From contig JAKQTR010000051.1 of assembly GCA_029562975.1 (NCBI GenBank), positions 330 through 64,329 on the forward strand: DNA of 64,000 nt. Direction: 5' to 3'. The translations under genes and the position numbers were made by a program. The notes beneath the pieces were generated by a model that saw only the letters and a program-made list of their open reading frames with translations, was not told the DNA's origin and did not search any database. Each line of letters begins with the position of its first letter. The first letter of the stretch is position 1. Shown piece by piece: positions 14,568 to 17,816 of this stretch. The stretch comes from Acidobacteriota bacterium. Its GTDB lineage: Bacteria > Acidobacteriota > Vicinamibacteria > Vicinamibacterales > JAKQTR01.

Positions 14568-15823
14568 AGATCGCGTTCGTCATCCAGCGCTACGGGTCGG
14601 AGATCCTGGGGGGATCCGAGTACCACTGCCGCCTGATCGCCGAGCGGCTGGCCGAGCGGCACGACGTCGAGGTGCTGACCACGTGCGCCCGCGACTACAT
14701 CACGTGGAAGAACGAGTACCCCGAAGGGACGGACCGGGTGCGCGGCGTCACCGTGCGCCGCTTCGCCGTGGCGCACCCGCGGGACATCGAAGCGTTCAAC
14801 CGGTACTCGGACTGGATCTTCCACAACCCGCACTCGCGCGAGGACGAGCTCGAGTGGCTGCGGCAGCAGGGGCCGTGGTGCCCGGCCCTCGTCGAGCACC
14901 TCGAGCGCTCGCACCAGGCGTACGACGCGCTGATCTTCTTCACGTACCTCTACGCCCCGACCGTGCTGGGCCTGGCCGTCGCGCCCGGCAAGAGCATCCT
15001 GGTGCCGACCGCCCACGACGAGCCGGCCATCCACCTCGGCCTCTACCAGGAGGTGTTCGCCCTGCCGGCGGCCATCGCCTACAACACCGAGGTCGAGCGC
15101 CGCTTCCTCAGCCGGGGCTTCCCCATCCGCGCGATCGCGGAGGAAACCGTGGGCTGCGGGGTGGACCTGCCGCACCAGCCGTACCGGCGCGATCGCCCGG
15201 CCGGCGCCGGGGCCGGCCCGGCGGAGGGCGAGGAGCCCGCCGCGGGCCACGCGGGCCGCTTCGCGGCCCCGGCCCGCGGCGAGGCGTTCAGGGCACGCCA
15301 CAAGATCCACGGGCCCTTCGCGCTCTACGGCGGCCGCATCGAGAAGGGCAAGGGCTGCGAGGAGCTGGTCGAGTACTTCGGCACGTACCACGCCGGCGGC
15401 GGCCACCTGACGCTCGCCCTCATGGGCGTCAAGCTGATGCCGCTGCCGGAGGAGCCGTACATCCGCTTCGCGGGCCTGCTCTCGGAGCGCGAGCGCCTCC
15501 AGGCCCTCGAGGCCGCCTCCGTCGTCGTGCTGCCCTCGCCGTTCGAGAGCCTGTCGCTCATGGCCATCGAGGCCTTCGCCGTCGGCACGCCGGTCCTGGC
15601 CAACGCCCGCTGCGAGGTCCTGGTCGACCACTGCCTGCGGAGCAACGCCGGGCTGTTCTACGCCGACCGCGACGAGTTCGTCGAGTGCCTAAAGCTCCTG
15701 GCCGTGGACGACCGCCTGCGCGCGCAGATGGGCCGCAACGGCCGCGCCTACGTCCGCCGGCACTACCGCTGGGATCTCATCCTGGGGAAGTACGAGAAGC
15801 TGATGGGGGCGGTGAGGAAGTAG
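14564..15823 (+). CDS. GT4 glycosyltransferase, type A paralog 2
   Basis: [24 protein letters not shown]...[17 protein letters not shown] and [25 protein letters not shown] 14564 (ATGA overlap) inside artefactual ORF 13517..15823. Confidence 0.75.
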   Translation: [419 protein letters not shown]

Positions 15824-15917
15824 AAGGTAAAGAAGGTAAAGAAGGTAAAGAAGGTAGAGAAGGTAGAGAAGGTAGAGAAGGGAAGAAAGGGAAAGAAGAG
15901 AAAGAAGGGAGGGGAGG
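15814..15917. repeat. purine-rich tandem 9-mer array (GAAGGTAAA x3, GAAGGTAGA x3, then degenerate units)
   Basis: Perfect units at 15823-15876, degenerating to GAAGGGAA/GAAAGGGAAA/GAAGAGAAA. It starts at the stop codon of the GT gene and ends at the GGAGG just before GTG 15921. Confidence 0.9.
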
Positions 15918-15920
15918 CGG

Positions 15921-16325
15921 GTGAAGGAGAAGGTGGGGGCTGAAGCAAAGGCTGGAGGGGACCGGGCGCCAGCCCGGAGCTTCCGCGATCTCATCGTCTG
16001 GCAGAAGGCGCACGAACTCGTGCTGGCCACCTACCGAGTCAGCGCGAGCTTTCCGAAGACAGAGAGCTTCGGCCTCACGGCTCAGATTCGGTCTGCTGCG
16101 GTGTCGATTGCCGCGAACATTGCGGAAGGATTCCGGCGGTCAGGCCGGTCTGACAAAGCACGAATGCTGAATGTCGCCCAAGGGTCCCTGGAGGAGGTCC
16201 GCTACTATCTGATTCTCGCCCGGGACCTGCAATACGGTGGGAACGCTGAGATCGACGGTCTCTTGGAGGATGTCAGCCGCCTGCTCAATGCCTATCGCCG
16301 CAAACTCCTGACTCCCCTCCCCTGA
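15921..16325 (+). CDS. four-helix-bundle protein (23S rRNA intervening-sequence protein / S23p family)
   Basis: SFRDLIVWQKAHELV...SIAANIAEGFRR.....F..A.GSLEE..Y.L.LARDL is the hallmark pattern of this family. Visibly more A/T-rich than its neighbours. GTG start is uncertain. Confidence 0.8.
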   Translation: MKEKVGAEAKAGGDRAPARSFRDLIVWQKAHELVLATYRVSASFPKTESFGLTAQIRSAAVSIAANIAEGFRRSGRSDKARMLNVAQGSLEEVRYYLILARDLQYGGNAEIDGLLEDVSRLLNAYRRKLLTPLP

Positions 16326-16327
16326 CT

Positions 16328-16408
16328 CCTGTACCTTCTCTACCTCCTGTACCTTCTCTACCTCCTGTACCTCCTGTACCTCCTGTACCTCCTCTACCTC
16401 CTACTCCC
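16328..16408. repeat. pyrimidine-rich tandem 9-mer array (CCTGTACCT / TCTCTACCT x9), inverted relative to 15814-15917
   Basis: Nine phased 9-mers. TCTCTACCT is the exact reverse complement of AGGTAGAGA from the upstream array. It overlaps the last codons of the four-helix gene and of the convergent response regulator. Confidence 0.9.
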
Positions 16409-17816
16409 CTCCCCCCTCCTCCCCATTCCTTCTTCGCTTCGTCACGATGTCGTGGCGCTTGATCATCTCGTTGAGCGTCGTGGGCTTGATGCGGAGCAGC
16501 TCGGCGGCGCGCTTCTGGACGCCTCCGGCGCTCTCGAGCGTCGTCTCGATGAGGCGCTTCTCGAAGCCCATCACGGCGTCCTTCAGCGAGAGCCCGTCGG
16601 GCGGGACGGCGACGGCCGGGACCTGAAACGAGGGCGGATGGCGCACGTGCTCGGGGATCAGCTCGACGCCGATCCGGGTCCCCTGCGTGAGCACCGCCCC
16701 GCGCTCGATCACGTTCTCGAGCTCGCGCACGTTGCCGGGCCACTGGTACGCCATCATCAGGTCGAGGGCCTCCGGCGCGAGCTCGAGCTCCGGCTTCCCG
16801 TTCTCCTCGCCGTACTTCTGCAGGAAGTGGCGGACGAGCAGCGGGATGTCGTCCCGGCGCTCGCGCAGCGGCGGCAGCTGGATGGTGATGACGTGCAGCC
16901 GGTAGTACAGGTCCTCGCGGAACTGCCCCTCCTCCATCATCCGGCCGAGATCGATGTTCGTGGCGGCGATGATGCGCACGTCCACCTTGATGGTCTCGAC
17001 GCCGCCCAGTCGCATGAACTCGCGCTCCTGGATGACCCGCAGGAGCTTCGGCTGCGTTTCGAGGGGAACGCTGCCGATCTCGTCGAAGAAGATGCTGCCG
17101 CGGTCGGCGACCTCGAAGAGGCCCTTCTTCGGGTACACCGCCCCGGTGAAGGCGCCCTTGACGTGGCCGAACAGGTTCGACTCGAGCAGGTCCGGCGGCA
17201 GGCTGCCGGAGTTCACGGTGACGAACGCGCGGTCCGCCCGCGGCGAGTGCGTGTGGATCGCGCGGGCGACGAGCTCCTTGCCGGTGCCGCTCTCGCCCTC
17301 GATGAGGATCGTGGACCGGCTGGGCGCCGCCTGGATGATCAGGTCGAACACGCGGCGCATCGACGGGCTCTTGCCGACGATGTTGTCGAACCGGTGGTAG
17401 CGCTCCTGGATGTTCTGGCGGAGCGACCGGTTCTCGGTCACGAGCCGCTTCCGCTCGACGGCGTTGCGCAGGACGAGCAGGACCTCGTCGTTCTTGAACG
17501 GCTTCGTGATGTAGTCCAGCGCCCCTCGCTTCATCGCGTCCACGGCGGCGTCCACCGAGGCGTAGGCGGTGACCATCACGACGGCCATGTCCTCGTCCAG
17601 CTTCTTCAGCTCGTCGAGGACGGTGAGCCCGTCCATGCCCGGCATCATCACGTCCACCAGCGCCGCGTCGAACGGGACGGAGCGCGCCAGGTCGAGGCCC
17701 TCGGCCCCGCCCGAGGCGACGCGGACGTCGTAGCCCTCGGGCGCCAGGAGCGCCTCGAGGATGTCCCGCATGACCTCCTCGTCGTCGATGACCAGGATGG
17801 ATCCCGCGCGCGCCAT
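16401..17816 (-). CDS. sigma-54-dependent response regulator (REC + AAA+ + Fis-type HTH; NtrC family)
   Basis: ILVIDDEE...DVMMPGMDG receiver, GESGTGKE Walker A, GAFTGA, ESNLFGH, RELENVIER, and a C-terminal HTH ...AAELLRIKPTTLNEMIKR. Confidence 0.9.
   Translation of the reverse strand: MARAGSILVIDDEEVMRDILEALLAPEGYDVRVASGGAEGLDLARSVPFDAALVDVMMPGMDGLTVLDELKKLDEDMAVVMVTAYASVDAAVDAMKRGALDYITKPFKNDEVLLVLRNAVERKRLVTENRSLRQNIQERYHRFDNIVGKSPSMRRVFDLIIQAAPSRSTILIEGESGTGKELVARAIHTHSPRADRAFVTVNSGSLPPDLLESNLFGHVKGAFTGAVYPKKGLFEVADRGSIFFDEIGSVPLETQPKLLRVIQEREFMRLGGVETIKVDVRIIAATNIDLGRMMEEGQFREDLYYRLHVITIQLPPLRERRDDIPLLVRHFLQKYGEENGKPELELAPEALDLMMAYQWPGNVRELENVIERGAVLTQGTRIGVELIPEHVRHPPSFQVPAVAVPPDGLSLKDAVMGFEKRLIETTLESAGGVQKRAAELLRIKPTTLNEMIKRHDIVTKRRRNGEEGGGE

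Follow-up and report, generated by a model that had tools for sequence, protein, structure and literature searches.

Within a 64,000-nt stretch of the genome of a member of the Acidobacteriota (contig JAKQTR010000051.1, positions 330 to 64,329; the whole stretch is hereafter referred to as the window), a gene for a small four-helix-bundle (4HB) protein is lodged between two convergent genes, one encoding a glycosyltransferase (GT) and the other a response regulator (RR), and is framed on both sides by arrays of tandem 9-nt units that are inverted relative to one another (Table 1). The protein belongs to the family named after the intervening sequences (IVSs) of 23S rRNA, and a first-pass annotation of the stretch had described the locus as an IVS-like cassette outside an rRNA gene. 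Comparison with relatives of the gene from about ten phyla leads us to conclude that the element is very probably an IVS-type cassette outside rRNA, in a structural as well as an evolutionary sense. The comparison further indicates that it is one copy of a widespread module, in which an intact gene of the PF05635/TIGR02436 family occupies the loop of a hairpin whose arms are inverted arrays.

Table 1. Features of the GT/RR junction, with positions in the window
Feature	Position	Strand	Basis or remark
3′ end of the GT4 gene, outermost part of the stem, pairs with 16403–16420	15803–15823	+	Minimum free energy (MFE) structures; native C-terminus according to orthologues
Last of several GT4 glycosyltransferase genes, stop codon TAG	15821–15823	+	Upstream neighbour
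Upstream purine-rich array, 5′ arm of the hairpin: three GAAGGTAAA, three GAAGGTAGA, then degenerate units	15822–15908	+	Tandem Repeats Finder (TRF), exact units
Degenerate purine tract with Shine–Dalgarno (SD)-like GGAGG at 15908–15912 and 15913–15917; pairs with the last codons of the open reading frame (ORF), 16307–16321	15880–15920	+	
4HB protein gene, PF05635/TIGR02436, 134 aa	15921–16325	+	GTG start; profile match
Alternative GTG start of the 4HB ORF	15933	+	
Relic canonical heptamers ACTCCTG ACTCCCC TCCCCTG ACTCCTG, encoding the C-terminal LLTPLP and the TGA stop	16304–16331	+	TRF, period 7
Downstream pyrimidine-rich array, 3′ arm of the hairpin, period 9: CCTGTACCT / TCTCTACCT / CCTCTACCT, eight phased units	16326–16402	+	
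Sigma-54 (NtrC-type) RR gene, stop codon	16401–16403	−	Convergent downstream neighbour, then its histidine kinase
Last codons of the RR gene and its stop (16401–16403), a C-rich run on the plus strand, pairs with the 3′ end of the GT gene	16401–16425	−	

The product of the ORF had been assigned from its sequence to the IVS-protein family, and the profile matches bear this out. It matches PF05635 (23S_rRNA_IVP) with an E-value of 2.5e-33 and 114.9 bits (cutoff 33.8), residues 22–121 aligning with positions 1–100 of the 106-position profile, and TIGR02436 ('four helix bundle protein') with 105.8 bits (cutoff 24). The window protein and 19 diverse homologues have 39 invariant columns in common, all invariant columns of the family are kept, and the nearest solved structure is XCC0516 (PDB 2GSC; E 8.4e-17). 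The nearest homologues are about 70% identical and are drawn from many phyla; the identical protein occurs, in constant context, on at least 19 metagenomic contigs from sewage and activated sludge that are annotated as Vicinamibacterales. Matches to profiles of Avd, the accessory protein of diversity-generating retroelements, fall below the family cutoffs (26.7 bits for bAvd PF22296, cutoff 40; 33.2 bits for NF033474 DivGenRetAVD, cutoff 80).

As first described, the ORF sits between the last GT gene and the convergent RR gene (stops at 15823 and 16401–16403) and is more A/T-rich than its neighbours. The GC content is 0.56–0.64 across the element and 0.69–0.82 in the flanks, and that of third codon positions is 0.72 in the 4HB ORF against 0.98 in the GT gene and 0.97 in the RR gene, a difference large enough to be strong evidence of foreign origin. 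The 64-kb window holds a single copy of the 4HB gene, its other arrays having different units. Among the neighbouring genes inspected, no recombinase, transposase or reverse transcriptase adjoins the cassette; simple scans of both strands over 15400–16800 recognised neither a sigma-70-like promoter nor an intrinsic terminator (a GC-rich hairpin followed by a T-run). No PADLOC anti-phage defence model gave a match at E ≤ 0.01, and no Rfam family, rRNA, tRNA and riboswitch models included, reached its gathering score anywhere in the window.

TRF reports the upstream array with a period of 9, 9.7 copies and 88% matches, and the downstream array with a period of 9 or 18 and 8.6 copies. The exact count upstream is six perfect GAAGGTA(A/G)A units (15823–15876), in keeping with the at least six perfect and about four degenerate units first noted; downstream it is eight phased YCTSTACCT units (16328–16399) rather than the nine originally given. 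The two arrays had been called reverse complements, and their inverted complementarity is indeed 85% over a 60-nt pair and 72% over a 105-nt pair (15805–15909 with 16315–16419). The tract bearing the SD-like motif is 87% complementary to the last codons of the ORF over 15 nt. This motif, GGAGG, was correctly placed before the start codon: it is present at 15908 and again at 15913, just ahead of the GTG at 15921, and in the MFE structure the 3′ arm base-pairs with 16 of the 18 nt of the SD/start window, through the last codons of the ORF itself.

It was further suggested that both convergent genes owe their last codons to the arrays, and this is borne out only marginally. The C-terminus of the GT is native (AVRK-stop, against AVRGK-stop or AVRGR-stop in orthologues), and only its stop codon abuts the array; in the RR, the last two or three codons alone deviate, with NGEEGGGE-stop against NGEEGD-stop in a relative in which the junction is empty.

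When the whole element is folded as RNA (15800–16440, 641 nt), the arrays form the enclosing stem and the energy is −293.1 kcal/mol, whereas dinucleotide shuffles give −252.0 ± 4.9 (z = −8.5). Co-folding 15814–15920 with 16306–16425 gave −113.0 against −86.0 ± 5.3 on the plus strand (z = −5.05; none of 200 shuffles as good) and −140.8 against −113.8 ± 5.7 kcal/mol on the minus strand (z = −4.7), so that the long interrupted stem that had been proposed around the ORF outperforms shuffled sequence on both strands. On the plus strand this stem has 49 pairs over 57 positions with a longest run of 14 bp, and on the minus strand 86 pairs over 96 positions with an uninterrupted run of 24 bp. The minus-strand stem is the better one because GAAGG in the upstream units faces downstream units whose complement is GGAGG, so that each 9-nt period brings an A·C mismatch to the sense RNA and a G·U pair to the antisense RNA. 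Two other measures were of little use. Duplexfold on 200-nt flanks with shuffles discriminated poorly (z = −1.6 for the window), because shuffling leaves the purine-versus-pyrimidine composition intact and the baselines of long duplexes are high, and raw co-fold energies compared with random genomic pairs were uninformative because DNA of 72% GC folds strongly by itself. Duplexfold was replaced by Smith–Waterman scoring against controls from the same loci and by the co-fold of the two segments given above.

The family was sampled as 80 loci with relatives, taken from GTDB contigs with one genome per species and covering about ten phyla (Cyanobacteria, Acidobacteriota, Verrucomicrobiota, Planctomycetota, Bacteroidota, Ignavibacteriota, Nitrospirota, Desulfobacterota, Firmicutes and others); the counts for complementarity and units refer to 76 loci, those for helices to 75 and those for MFE folds to 77. 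The family as a whole is very large, a search of representatives at 50% identity giving 19,478 clusters at E ≤ 1e-3 and 5,683 at E ≤ 1e-10. In local alignments of the 200 nt upstream of each gene with the reverse complement of the 200 nt downstream, arm complementarity was higher in 51 of the 76 loci than the 99th percentile of 280 control positions shifted within the same loci (medians 31 for loci and 16 for controls; Mann–Whitney p = 1e-14). Tandem units, scored as at least two tandem copies of YAGDANN upstream or of NNTHCTR downstream, were present upstream in 51, downstream in 64 and on both sides in 47 of the 76, as against 3, 5 and 1 of 293 control positions. These two measures answer a question raised by the first-pass annotation, namely whether other members of the family carry inverted flanks of their own. 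An imperfect helix of at least 20 pairs was found in 47 of 75 loci; in full-length MFE folds at least 20 pairs join the 5′ flank to the 3′ arm in 60 of 77, and in 31 of 77 the 3′ arm engages the SD/start window. A longer array on one side tends to go with a longer one on the other (Spearman 0.43, p = 0.0016). Neighbouring genes are co-oriented in about 75% of cases by crude gene calls, which is similar to our estimate of the bacterial background and so gives no evidence for operon dependence.

The arrays of the family are mostly heptameric. Near family genes TRF reports 104 arrays with a period of 7 nt, 25 with one of 14 or 21 nt and 12 with one of 9 nt; the unit sequences are conserved across phyla. 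The commonest are CAGGAGT (50) and CAGAATT (26), followed by CAGGAGA and CAGAAGT; a typical locus has CAGGAGT or CAGAATT upstream and ACTCCTG or AATTCTG downstream, the upstream consensus being CAG-R-A-N-N and the downstream one its complement. Gene and arrays are interlocked at both ends. Upstream, the start codon often follows the array without a break (...CAGGAGTCAGAATG); downstream, the array provides the last five or so codons and the TGA stop in most loci, TGA being the stop codon in 61 of 76. The C-termini AILTPDS-stop, AILNSGF-stop, AILDSDS-stop and AILSPVS-stop are all encoded by ATTCTG-NNTYCTG-NNTYC-TGA; the first two are built from ATTCTGACTCCTGACTCCTGA, and their counterpart in the window is LLTPLP. 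Since the C-terminal peptides vary while the coding pattern is constant, it is the nucleotide repeat that is conserved and not the peptide. Set against this background, the window element is a rare 9-mer (GAAGGTARA) version of the family cassette that has kept relics of the heptamers; similar 9-mers occur in a locus of the Desulfobulbaceae (L065).

Cassettes occupy very tight spacers. In three Planctomycetota loci (L242, L245, L246) the cassette lies in the ruvC–ruvA spacer and ends 4 nt before the start of ruvA; its alternating units make up a 14-mer (CAGGAGTCAGGATT), of which different samples have either two or five to six copies, and the encoded proteins, of 121 and 130 aa, differ solely through slippage in the downstream array. 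Some loci depart from the simple plan. Two cassettes with different unit sequences (ACAGTGG/TGTCCAC) lie within 1.6 kb at L023:356–819, a segment of the upstream arm is duplicated at L068:1880–2000, and an 'empty' array hairpin with only an ORF of about 23 codons stands directly upstream of a full cassette at L062:1850–2000. One Acidoferrales metagenome-assembled genome (MAG) carries three copies (L044, L047, L049) of an identical 4HB gene that lacks an upstream array and is accompanied by a divergent 538-aa ORF without a Pfam match; the left flank is the same in all three over 650 nt while the right flanks differ, and the whole resembles a larger block, repeated and possibly mobile, in which the 4HB gene is carried.

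The junction of the window can be followed through its relatives, where it is polymorphic for the cassette. In L087, whose GT is 88% identical to that of the window, the junction reads TAG-AAGGAG-TCA, with 6 nt between the two stops, and is essentially empty. Three further relatives (L088–L090; GT 81–84%) have a junction of 151–166 nt with inverted arrays of other units, (CAGAAGC/AAGAAGC) facing (CTTCTTG)n or (CTTCTGG)n, and no gene. In L241 (GT 89%) a 4HB gene is set in canonical heptamers, the GT stop TAG being followed by eight CAGGAGT units and CAGA that runs into the ATG, with ATTCTGACTTCTGACTCCTGA at the far end. Together with the 9-mer cassette of the window, one and the same junction is thus found in four states. 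The first-pass annotation had held that arrays without the gene in relatives would make the arrays generic spacers; such arrays are indeed present in L088–L090, though their units differ from those of the window.

Looked at more closely, L087:3770–3785 reads TAG-AAGGAGTCAG-TCC, and 9 nt of it, AGGAGTCAG, resemble one canonical unit and also give the RR stop codon; this solo unit could be what a lost array left behind or the start of a new one. The gene-less junctions of L088 (3773–3938), L089 and L090 contain three copies of a higher-order repeat of about 37 nt, each made up of CAGAAGCAAGAAGCCAGAAG and a small palindrome, CTGACgattGTCAG; together they face five to six copies of CTTCTTG or four of CTTCTGG.

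The 4HB proteins of L241 and the window are 71% identical, and homologues from Planctomycetota and Ignavibacteria are equally close. In so conserved a family this level of identity tends to favour independent insertion or replacement at the GT/RR junction over vertical descent. The block of about 577 nt from about 15824 to 16400 is a horizontally acquired insertion in a Vicinamibacterales chromosome, placed exactly between the GT and RR stop codons; the small insertion cassette first suggested is supported by the 6-nt junction of L087 and by the foreign codon usage of the ORF. No target-site duplication is visible when the filled and empty sites are compared.

Within the species of the window the arrays are the fastest-changing feature. 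One 9-nt unit is the sole difference between L003 and the window over 6405 nt, and strains that are 98.6% identical (L001, L002, L004, L005 and L006) have 4 + 4 units where the window has 6 + 8, together with a matched variant pair in the two arms, GGTAGGG / CCCCTACC. These comparisons indicate that the arrays evolve by slippage of units, with the two arms changing in concert.

Arrays of the same kinds also occur without the gene, and not only at this junction. In the window itself, a canonical heptamer hairpin without a gene, CAGGAGTCAGGAGTCAGAATTCTGAATTCTG, lies at 3271–3300, and canonical units at 4788–4812 and 5368–5400 flank purE. At 57843–57990, a convergent junction, an inverted pair of G-rich heptamer arrays (GGGACAAGGGGCAGGG... 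/ ...CCCTTGCCCCTTGTCCC) has no gene between its arms, and gene-less inverted heptamer pairs are likewise found in the flanks of many family loci. Arrays of (CAGGAGT)n are present in 31 viral contigs, none of which has the 4HB gene, and in Geobacter metallireducens eight gene-less pairs of five MTYCTGA heptamers have been described as 'putative global regulator binding sites' (Aklujkar et al. 2009, PMC2700814). The arrays are therefore not exclusive to the gene. A metagenome scan for the 9-mer pattern AAGGTARAGAAGGTARAGAAGGTA gave at least 119 matches, of which none of the 86 evaluable ones has a 4HB gene; they are mostly in-frame coding repeats of the GKEGKE type or unrelated arrays, and were no help in tracing the 9-mer variant.

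Several details of these gene-less arrays deserve description. Heptamer arrays, belonging to several unit families, are scattered throughout this genome. The hairpin at 3271–3300 (GGAGTCAGGAGTCAGAATTCTGAATTCTG) stands between a plus-strand ORF ending at 3267 and a convergent MiaB-like gene, and its arrays meet head-to-head at CAGAAT/TCTG, the position that the 4HB gene takes in full cassettes; a C-rich heptamer array (CGAGCCC/GCCCCCG) follows at 3324–3363. The gene purE (4813–5310, minus strand) belongs to a purD-purE-MiaB-like string, and the spacers at 4702–4826 and 5325–5410 are of equal two-part design, a G-rich array of 6–7-nt units (CGGGACT / CTCGGGG) beside canonical ATTCTGA/CAGAATC units, among which CAGAATGG is read on the gene strand; relative to each other, the spacers are in direct and not in inverted orientation. 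A gap of about 60 nt separates the arrays of 57843–57990 (GGGACAAGGGGCAGGGAAGGG ... CCCTTGCCCCTTGTCCC); related (GGGGCAA)n, (CGGGACT)n and (CCCCTTG)n arrays occur elsewhere in the window, including 47585–47665 and 55086–55137. In the IMG/VR viral contigs L120 (3543, minus strand), L117 and L101, (CAGGAGT)n-CAGAATG runs into the start codon of large ORFs other than the 4HB gene, of 461 aa for example, so that the array with its CAGAATG start context also serves other genes in phage-like contigs.

The closest known counterpart to which the element can be compared in detail is the IVS in helix 45 of the 23S rRNA of Coxiella burnetii, which carries a gene of the same family, 'S23p' (Warrier et al. 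2016, PMC4990558). This IVS has a 28-bp terminal stem and, directly before the ATG, two to three tandem GACAGAT units and a degenerate GACAGAA, in a copy number that varies between strains (PMC4990558). Read in rotated register these heptamers, CAGATGA...CAGAA-ATG, fit the CAG-R-A-N-N consensus. RNase III of both Coxiella and E. coli cuts the stem in its middle, the 5′ cut falling at the start of the first repeat (PMC4990558). IVSs bearing an ORF are also known in Leptospira, as cited in the Coxiella paper (Ralph & McClelland 1993, in PMC4990558). The first-pass annotation had likened the topology of the window element to the RNase III-processed stems of rRNA IVSs, and the likeness goes further than it had proposed, since the Coxiella IVS also shares the gene family and the tandem heptamers before the ATG. 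In common with ORF-bearing 23S IVSs, the element has the same protein family in the loop, a long terminal inverted-repeat stem, a 5′ arm of short tandem units just ahead of the start codon, a copy number that varies between strains and a size of about 430–600 nt.

The differences are as plain. The window element lies between protein-coding genes and not in an rRNA gene, in keeping with the Rfam result for the 64 kb; its units are of 9 nt and not 7, and its arms, of about 95 and 80 nt, are far longer than those in Coxiella. The Coxiella stem is an experimentally demonstrated RNase III substrate, whereas cleavage in the window is predicted. Of the traits of an IVS, the window element thus has the enclosing stem, of 20 bp or more, but not the location inside helix 25 or 45 of 23S rRNA; of the ORF-bearing subtype it has the PF05635 ORF after tandem short units, 9 nt long here and heptamers in most relatives. 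All 80 family loci sampled lie outside 23S rRNA genes, so the comparison with rRNA IVSs rests on the Coxiella paper. The features shared with Coxiella imply that rRNA IVSs and the cassettes outside rRNA are the same kind of object, and an ORF-bearing IVS is this type of cassette when it resides in helix 45 of 23S rRNA. The rRNA-resident copies are a small minority of the cassettes, with none among the 80 loci sampled here.

Stems cut by RNase III bracket RNA segments in the early mRNA of phage T7 and in rRNA precursors, where cleavage frees a segment whose ends are protected by the stem. The hairpin of the window likewise brackets an RNA segment with long imperfect double-stranded RNA; the T7 and rRNA-precursor stems are of unique sequence and not tandem, and cleavage here is hypothetical. 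Repetitive extragenic palindromes (REPs and REPINs) with their associated transposases (RAYTs) are similar in being short extragenic hairpin repeats that lie in spacers, often at convergent gene ends, with a small gene between inverted repeats. They differ in that the arms of the cassette are tandem arrays of 7–9-nt units and not a single palindrome, and in that the 4HB protein has no transposase fold; moreover, we found no evidence that the cassette is mobilised in trans. DGR Avd proteins (DGR, diversity-generating retroelement) belong to a related four-helix-bundle fold family, with the weak similarity given above. The Geobacter metallireducens class 3 sites (PMC2700814) are inverted pairs of about five tandem heptamers, and MTYCTGA equals the canonical downstream units; like the cassettes they lie in short spacers inside or between operons, but they are gene-less, are about 75–115 nt apart and were read as protein-binding sites, with no link to PF05635 or IVSs drawn. 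Tandem heptamers in intergenic regions are further known as the TAACTGA direct repeats of Beggiatoaceae and cyanobacteria (MacGregor 2015, PMC4679880); these and the short tandemly repeated repetitive (STRR) heptamers resemble the cassette arrays in being intergenic and in often ending beside start codons, and differ in being direct repeats on one side of a gene, with other unit sequences, not described as inverted pairs around a gene family (PMC4679880). The PF05635 family is also frequent in cas loci (PMC3936711).

Taken together, we consider it on balance probable that the element is a horizontally acquired IVS-type cassette which would act as an RNA hairpin, with read-through transcription, release by RNase III and a barrier at 3′ ends. 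As no promoter or intrinsic terminator of its own was recognised, the element is presumably transcribed by read-through from the flanking operons. The arms would then pair into more than 50 bp of imperfect double-stranded RNA, which would occlude the SD sequence and the start codon and serve as a substrate for RNase III. Cleavage of the stem would detach the cassette RNA from the host transcript, leaving both products with base-paired ends. Uncoupled in this way, the cassette would be tolerable in almost any transcribed spacer, even in rRNA. At the convergent GT/RR junction the stem may also act as a 3′-end barrier for both operons, one that would be especially clean on minus-strand RNA. For the insulation by RNase III, which is argued by analogy with known substrates, we regard the balance as even.

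A number of observations count against this interpretation. In the window the mismatches of the arms are mostly A·C (10 against 2), and the antisense RNA folds better than the sense RNA. Across the family, mismatches that are G·U-compatible and those that are A·C are about equal in number (57 and 48, p = 0.44), and this lack of asymmetry gives no sign of pairing selected specifically on the sense RNA. About a third of the family loci lack one or both arrays, and the same kinds of arrays exist without the 4HB gene. In Coxiella, moreover, cleavage removes the SD sequence and the protein was not detected (PMC4990558), so that processing may silence the gene rather than enable it.

Two other explanations are compatible in part with a released cassette, and the first of them does not exclude it. 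The arrays could be autonomous generic intergenic hairpins of the REP or STRR kind, serving as terminator-like 3′-end barriers, mRNA stabilisers, translation insulators or protein-binding sites, with the 4HB gene a frequent passenger in their loops. The gene-less arrays speak for this: those at the same junction in L088–L090, the hairpins at 3271–3300 and 57843–57990 of the window, both at convergent junctions, those in the flanks of many family loci, the (CAGGAGT)n arrays of 31 viral contigs, some directly before other ORFs, and the eight heptamer pairs of Geobacter metallireducens (PMC2700814). A mere passenger would hardly be woven into the arrays as this gene is, its start abutting the upstream array and its C-terminal codons and TGA drawn from the downstream one; arrays flank 62–84% of family genes but only about 1–2% of control positions, and the same arrangement is found inside rRNA (PMC4990558). 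We think it unlikely, if not negligibly so, that the passenger explanation is the right one. The arrays might instead act on DNA, as recombination or landing sites (hairpin, cruciform or short portable homology) at which cassettes are inserted, exchanged and lost, and the 4HB protein may bind the repeats in the manner of RAYTs and REPs or of integron attC sites. The four states of a single junction in close relatives fit such exchange, as do the mere 71% identity of its two 4HB proteins, which suggests replacement, the lack of a G·U/A·C strand asymmetry, the conservation of unit sequences across phyla and the gene-less hairpins that read as arrays fused at CAGAAT/TCTG. But no recombinase, transposase or reverse transcriptase lies beside the cassette, no target-site duplication is visible, the protein is a four-helix bundle without a catalytic fold (nearest structure XCC0516), and no identical cassette was seen in two contexts save for the larger repeated block of one MAG; the DNA-level explanation is in our judgement rather improbable.

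That the 4HB gene is the Avd accessory protein of a diversity-generating retroelement is extremely unlikely: the weak similarity to PF22296 (26.7 bits) and NF033474 (33.2 bits) stays under the cutoffs of 40 and 80, and the immediate neighbours are the GT4, RR and histidine kinase genes, with no reverse transcriptase and no template or variable repeats among them. Nor are the repeats a chance run of low-complexity sequence or an assembly artefact unrelated to the gene, a view with almost nothing left to commend it. It is true that metagenomes often contain the 9-mer pattern, for the most part in frame within coding sequence of low complexity, and that much of the pairing energy of the arms reflects purine-versus-pyrimidine composition, the 200-nt duplexfold giving a z of only −1.6. 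The same arrays were, however, assembled independently in at least six samples, the arms beat shuffles in the co-fold, and the enrichment over controls across the family is overwhelming; on these three grounds chance and artefact were ruled out.

Alongside the reading of the element as a released IVS-type cassette stands a bolder proposal, which we offer as speculative and doubtful: PF05635 proteins and hairpins of 7–9-nt arrays may form one system, in which a pentamer-forming protein would recognise the phased units on RNA or single-stranded DNA and so control, propagate or maintain the hairpins, much as RAYTs act with REPs or as TRAP binds phased triplets. If this were true, ORF-bearing and ORF-less rRNA IVSs, the Geobacter sites and possibly the STRR-type heptamers of cyanobacteria would be facets of one system, and gene-end spacers would be recurrent landing pads for the exchange of cassettes.

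Partial precedents for the module are known, in the Coxiella heptamers, the paired sites of Geobacter, the TAACTGA repeats and the presence of the family in cas loci. Our literature search, in which most subscription journals lay outside the searched full texts, found no paper that describes the general array-framed module or its prevalence outside rRNA, and the family-wide packaging of PF05635 genes in inverted arrays outside rRNA is apparently undescribed. To our knowledge, no function has been assigned in 30 years to the '23S rRNA IVS protein' family, and the origin of the rRNA IVSs is likewise unexplained. The present comparison shows that the gene normally travels as a defined module, its arms made of inverted tandem units, its start codon where one array ends on the inner side and its stop within the other array, and that this module is overwhelmingly located outside rRNA, in tight operon spacers, and recurs at hot-spot junctions. 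IVSs would then be the rRNA-resident minority of a general cassette that is tolerated by host transcripts, and the heptamers of Coxiella, the paired sites of Geobacter and the ORF-free hairpins, so far scattered observations, would be joined in one picture. Should the stems act as self-excising insulators, the cassette would also represent a compact natural part for adding genes to operons without polar effects.

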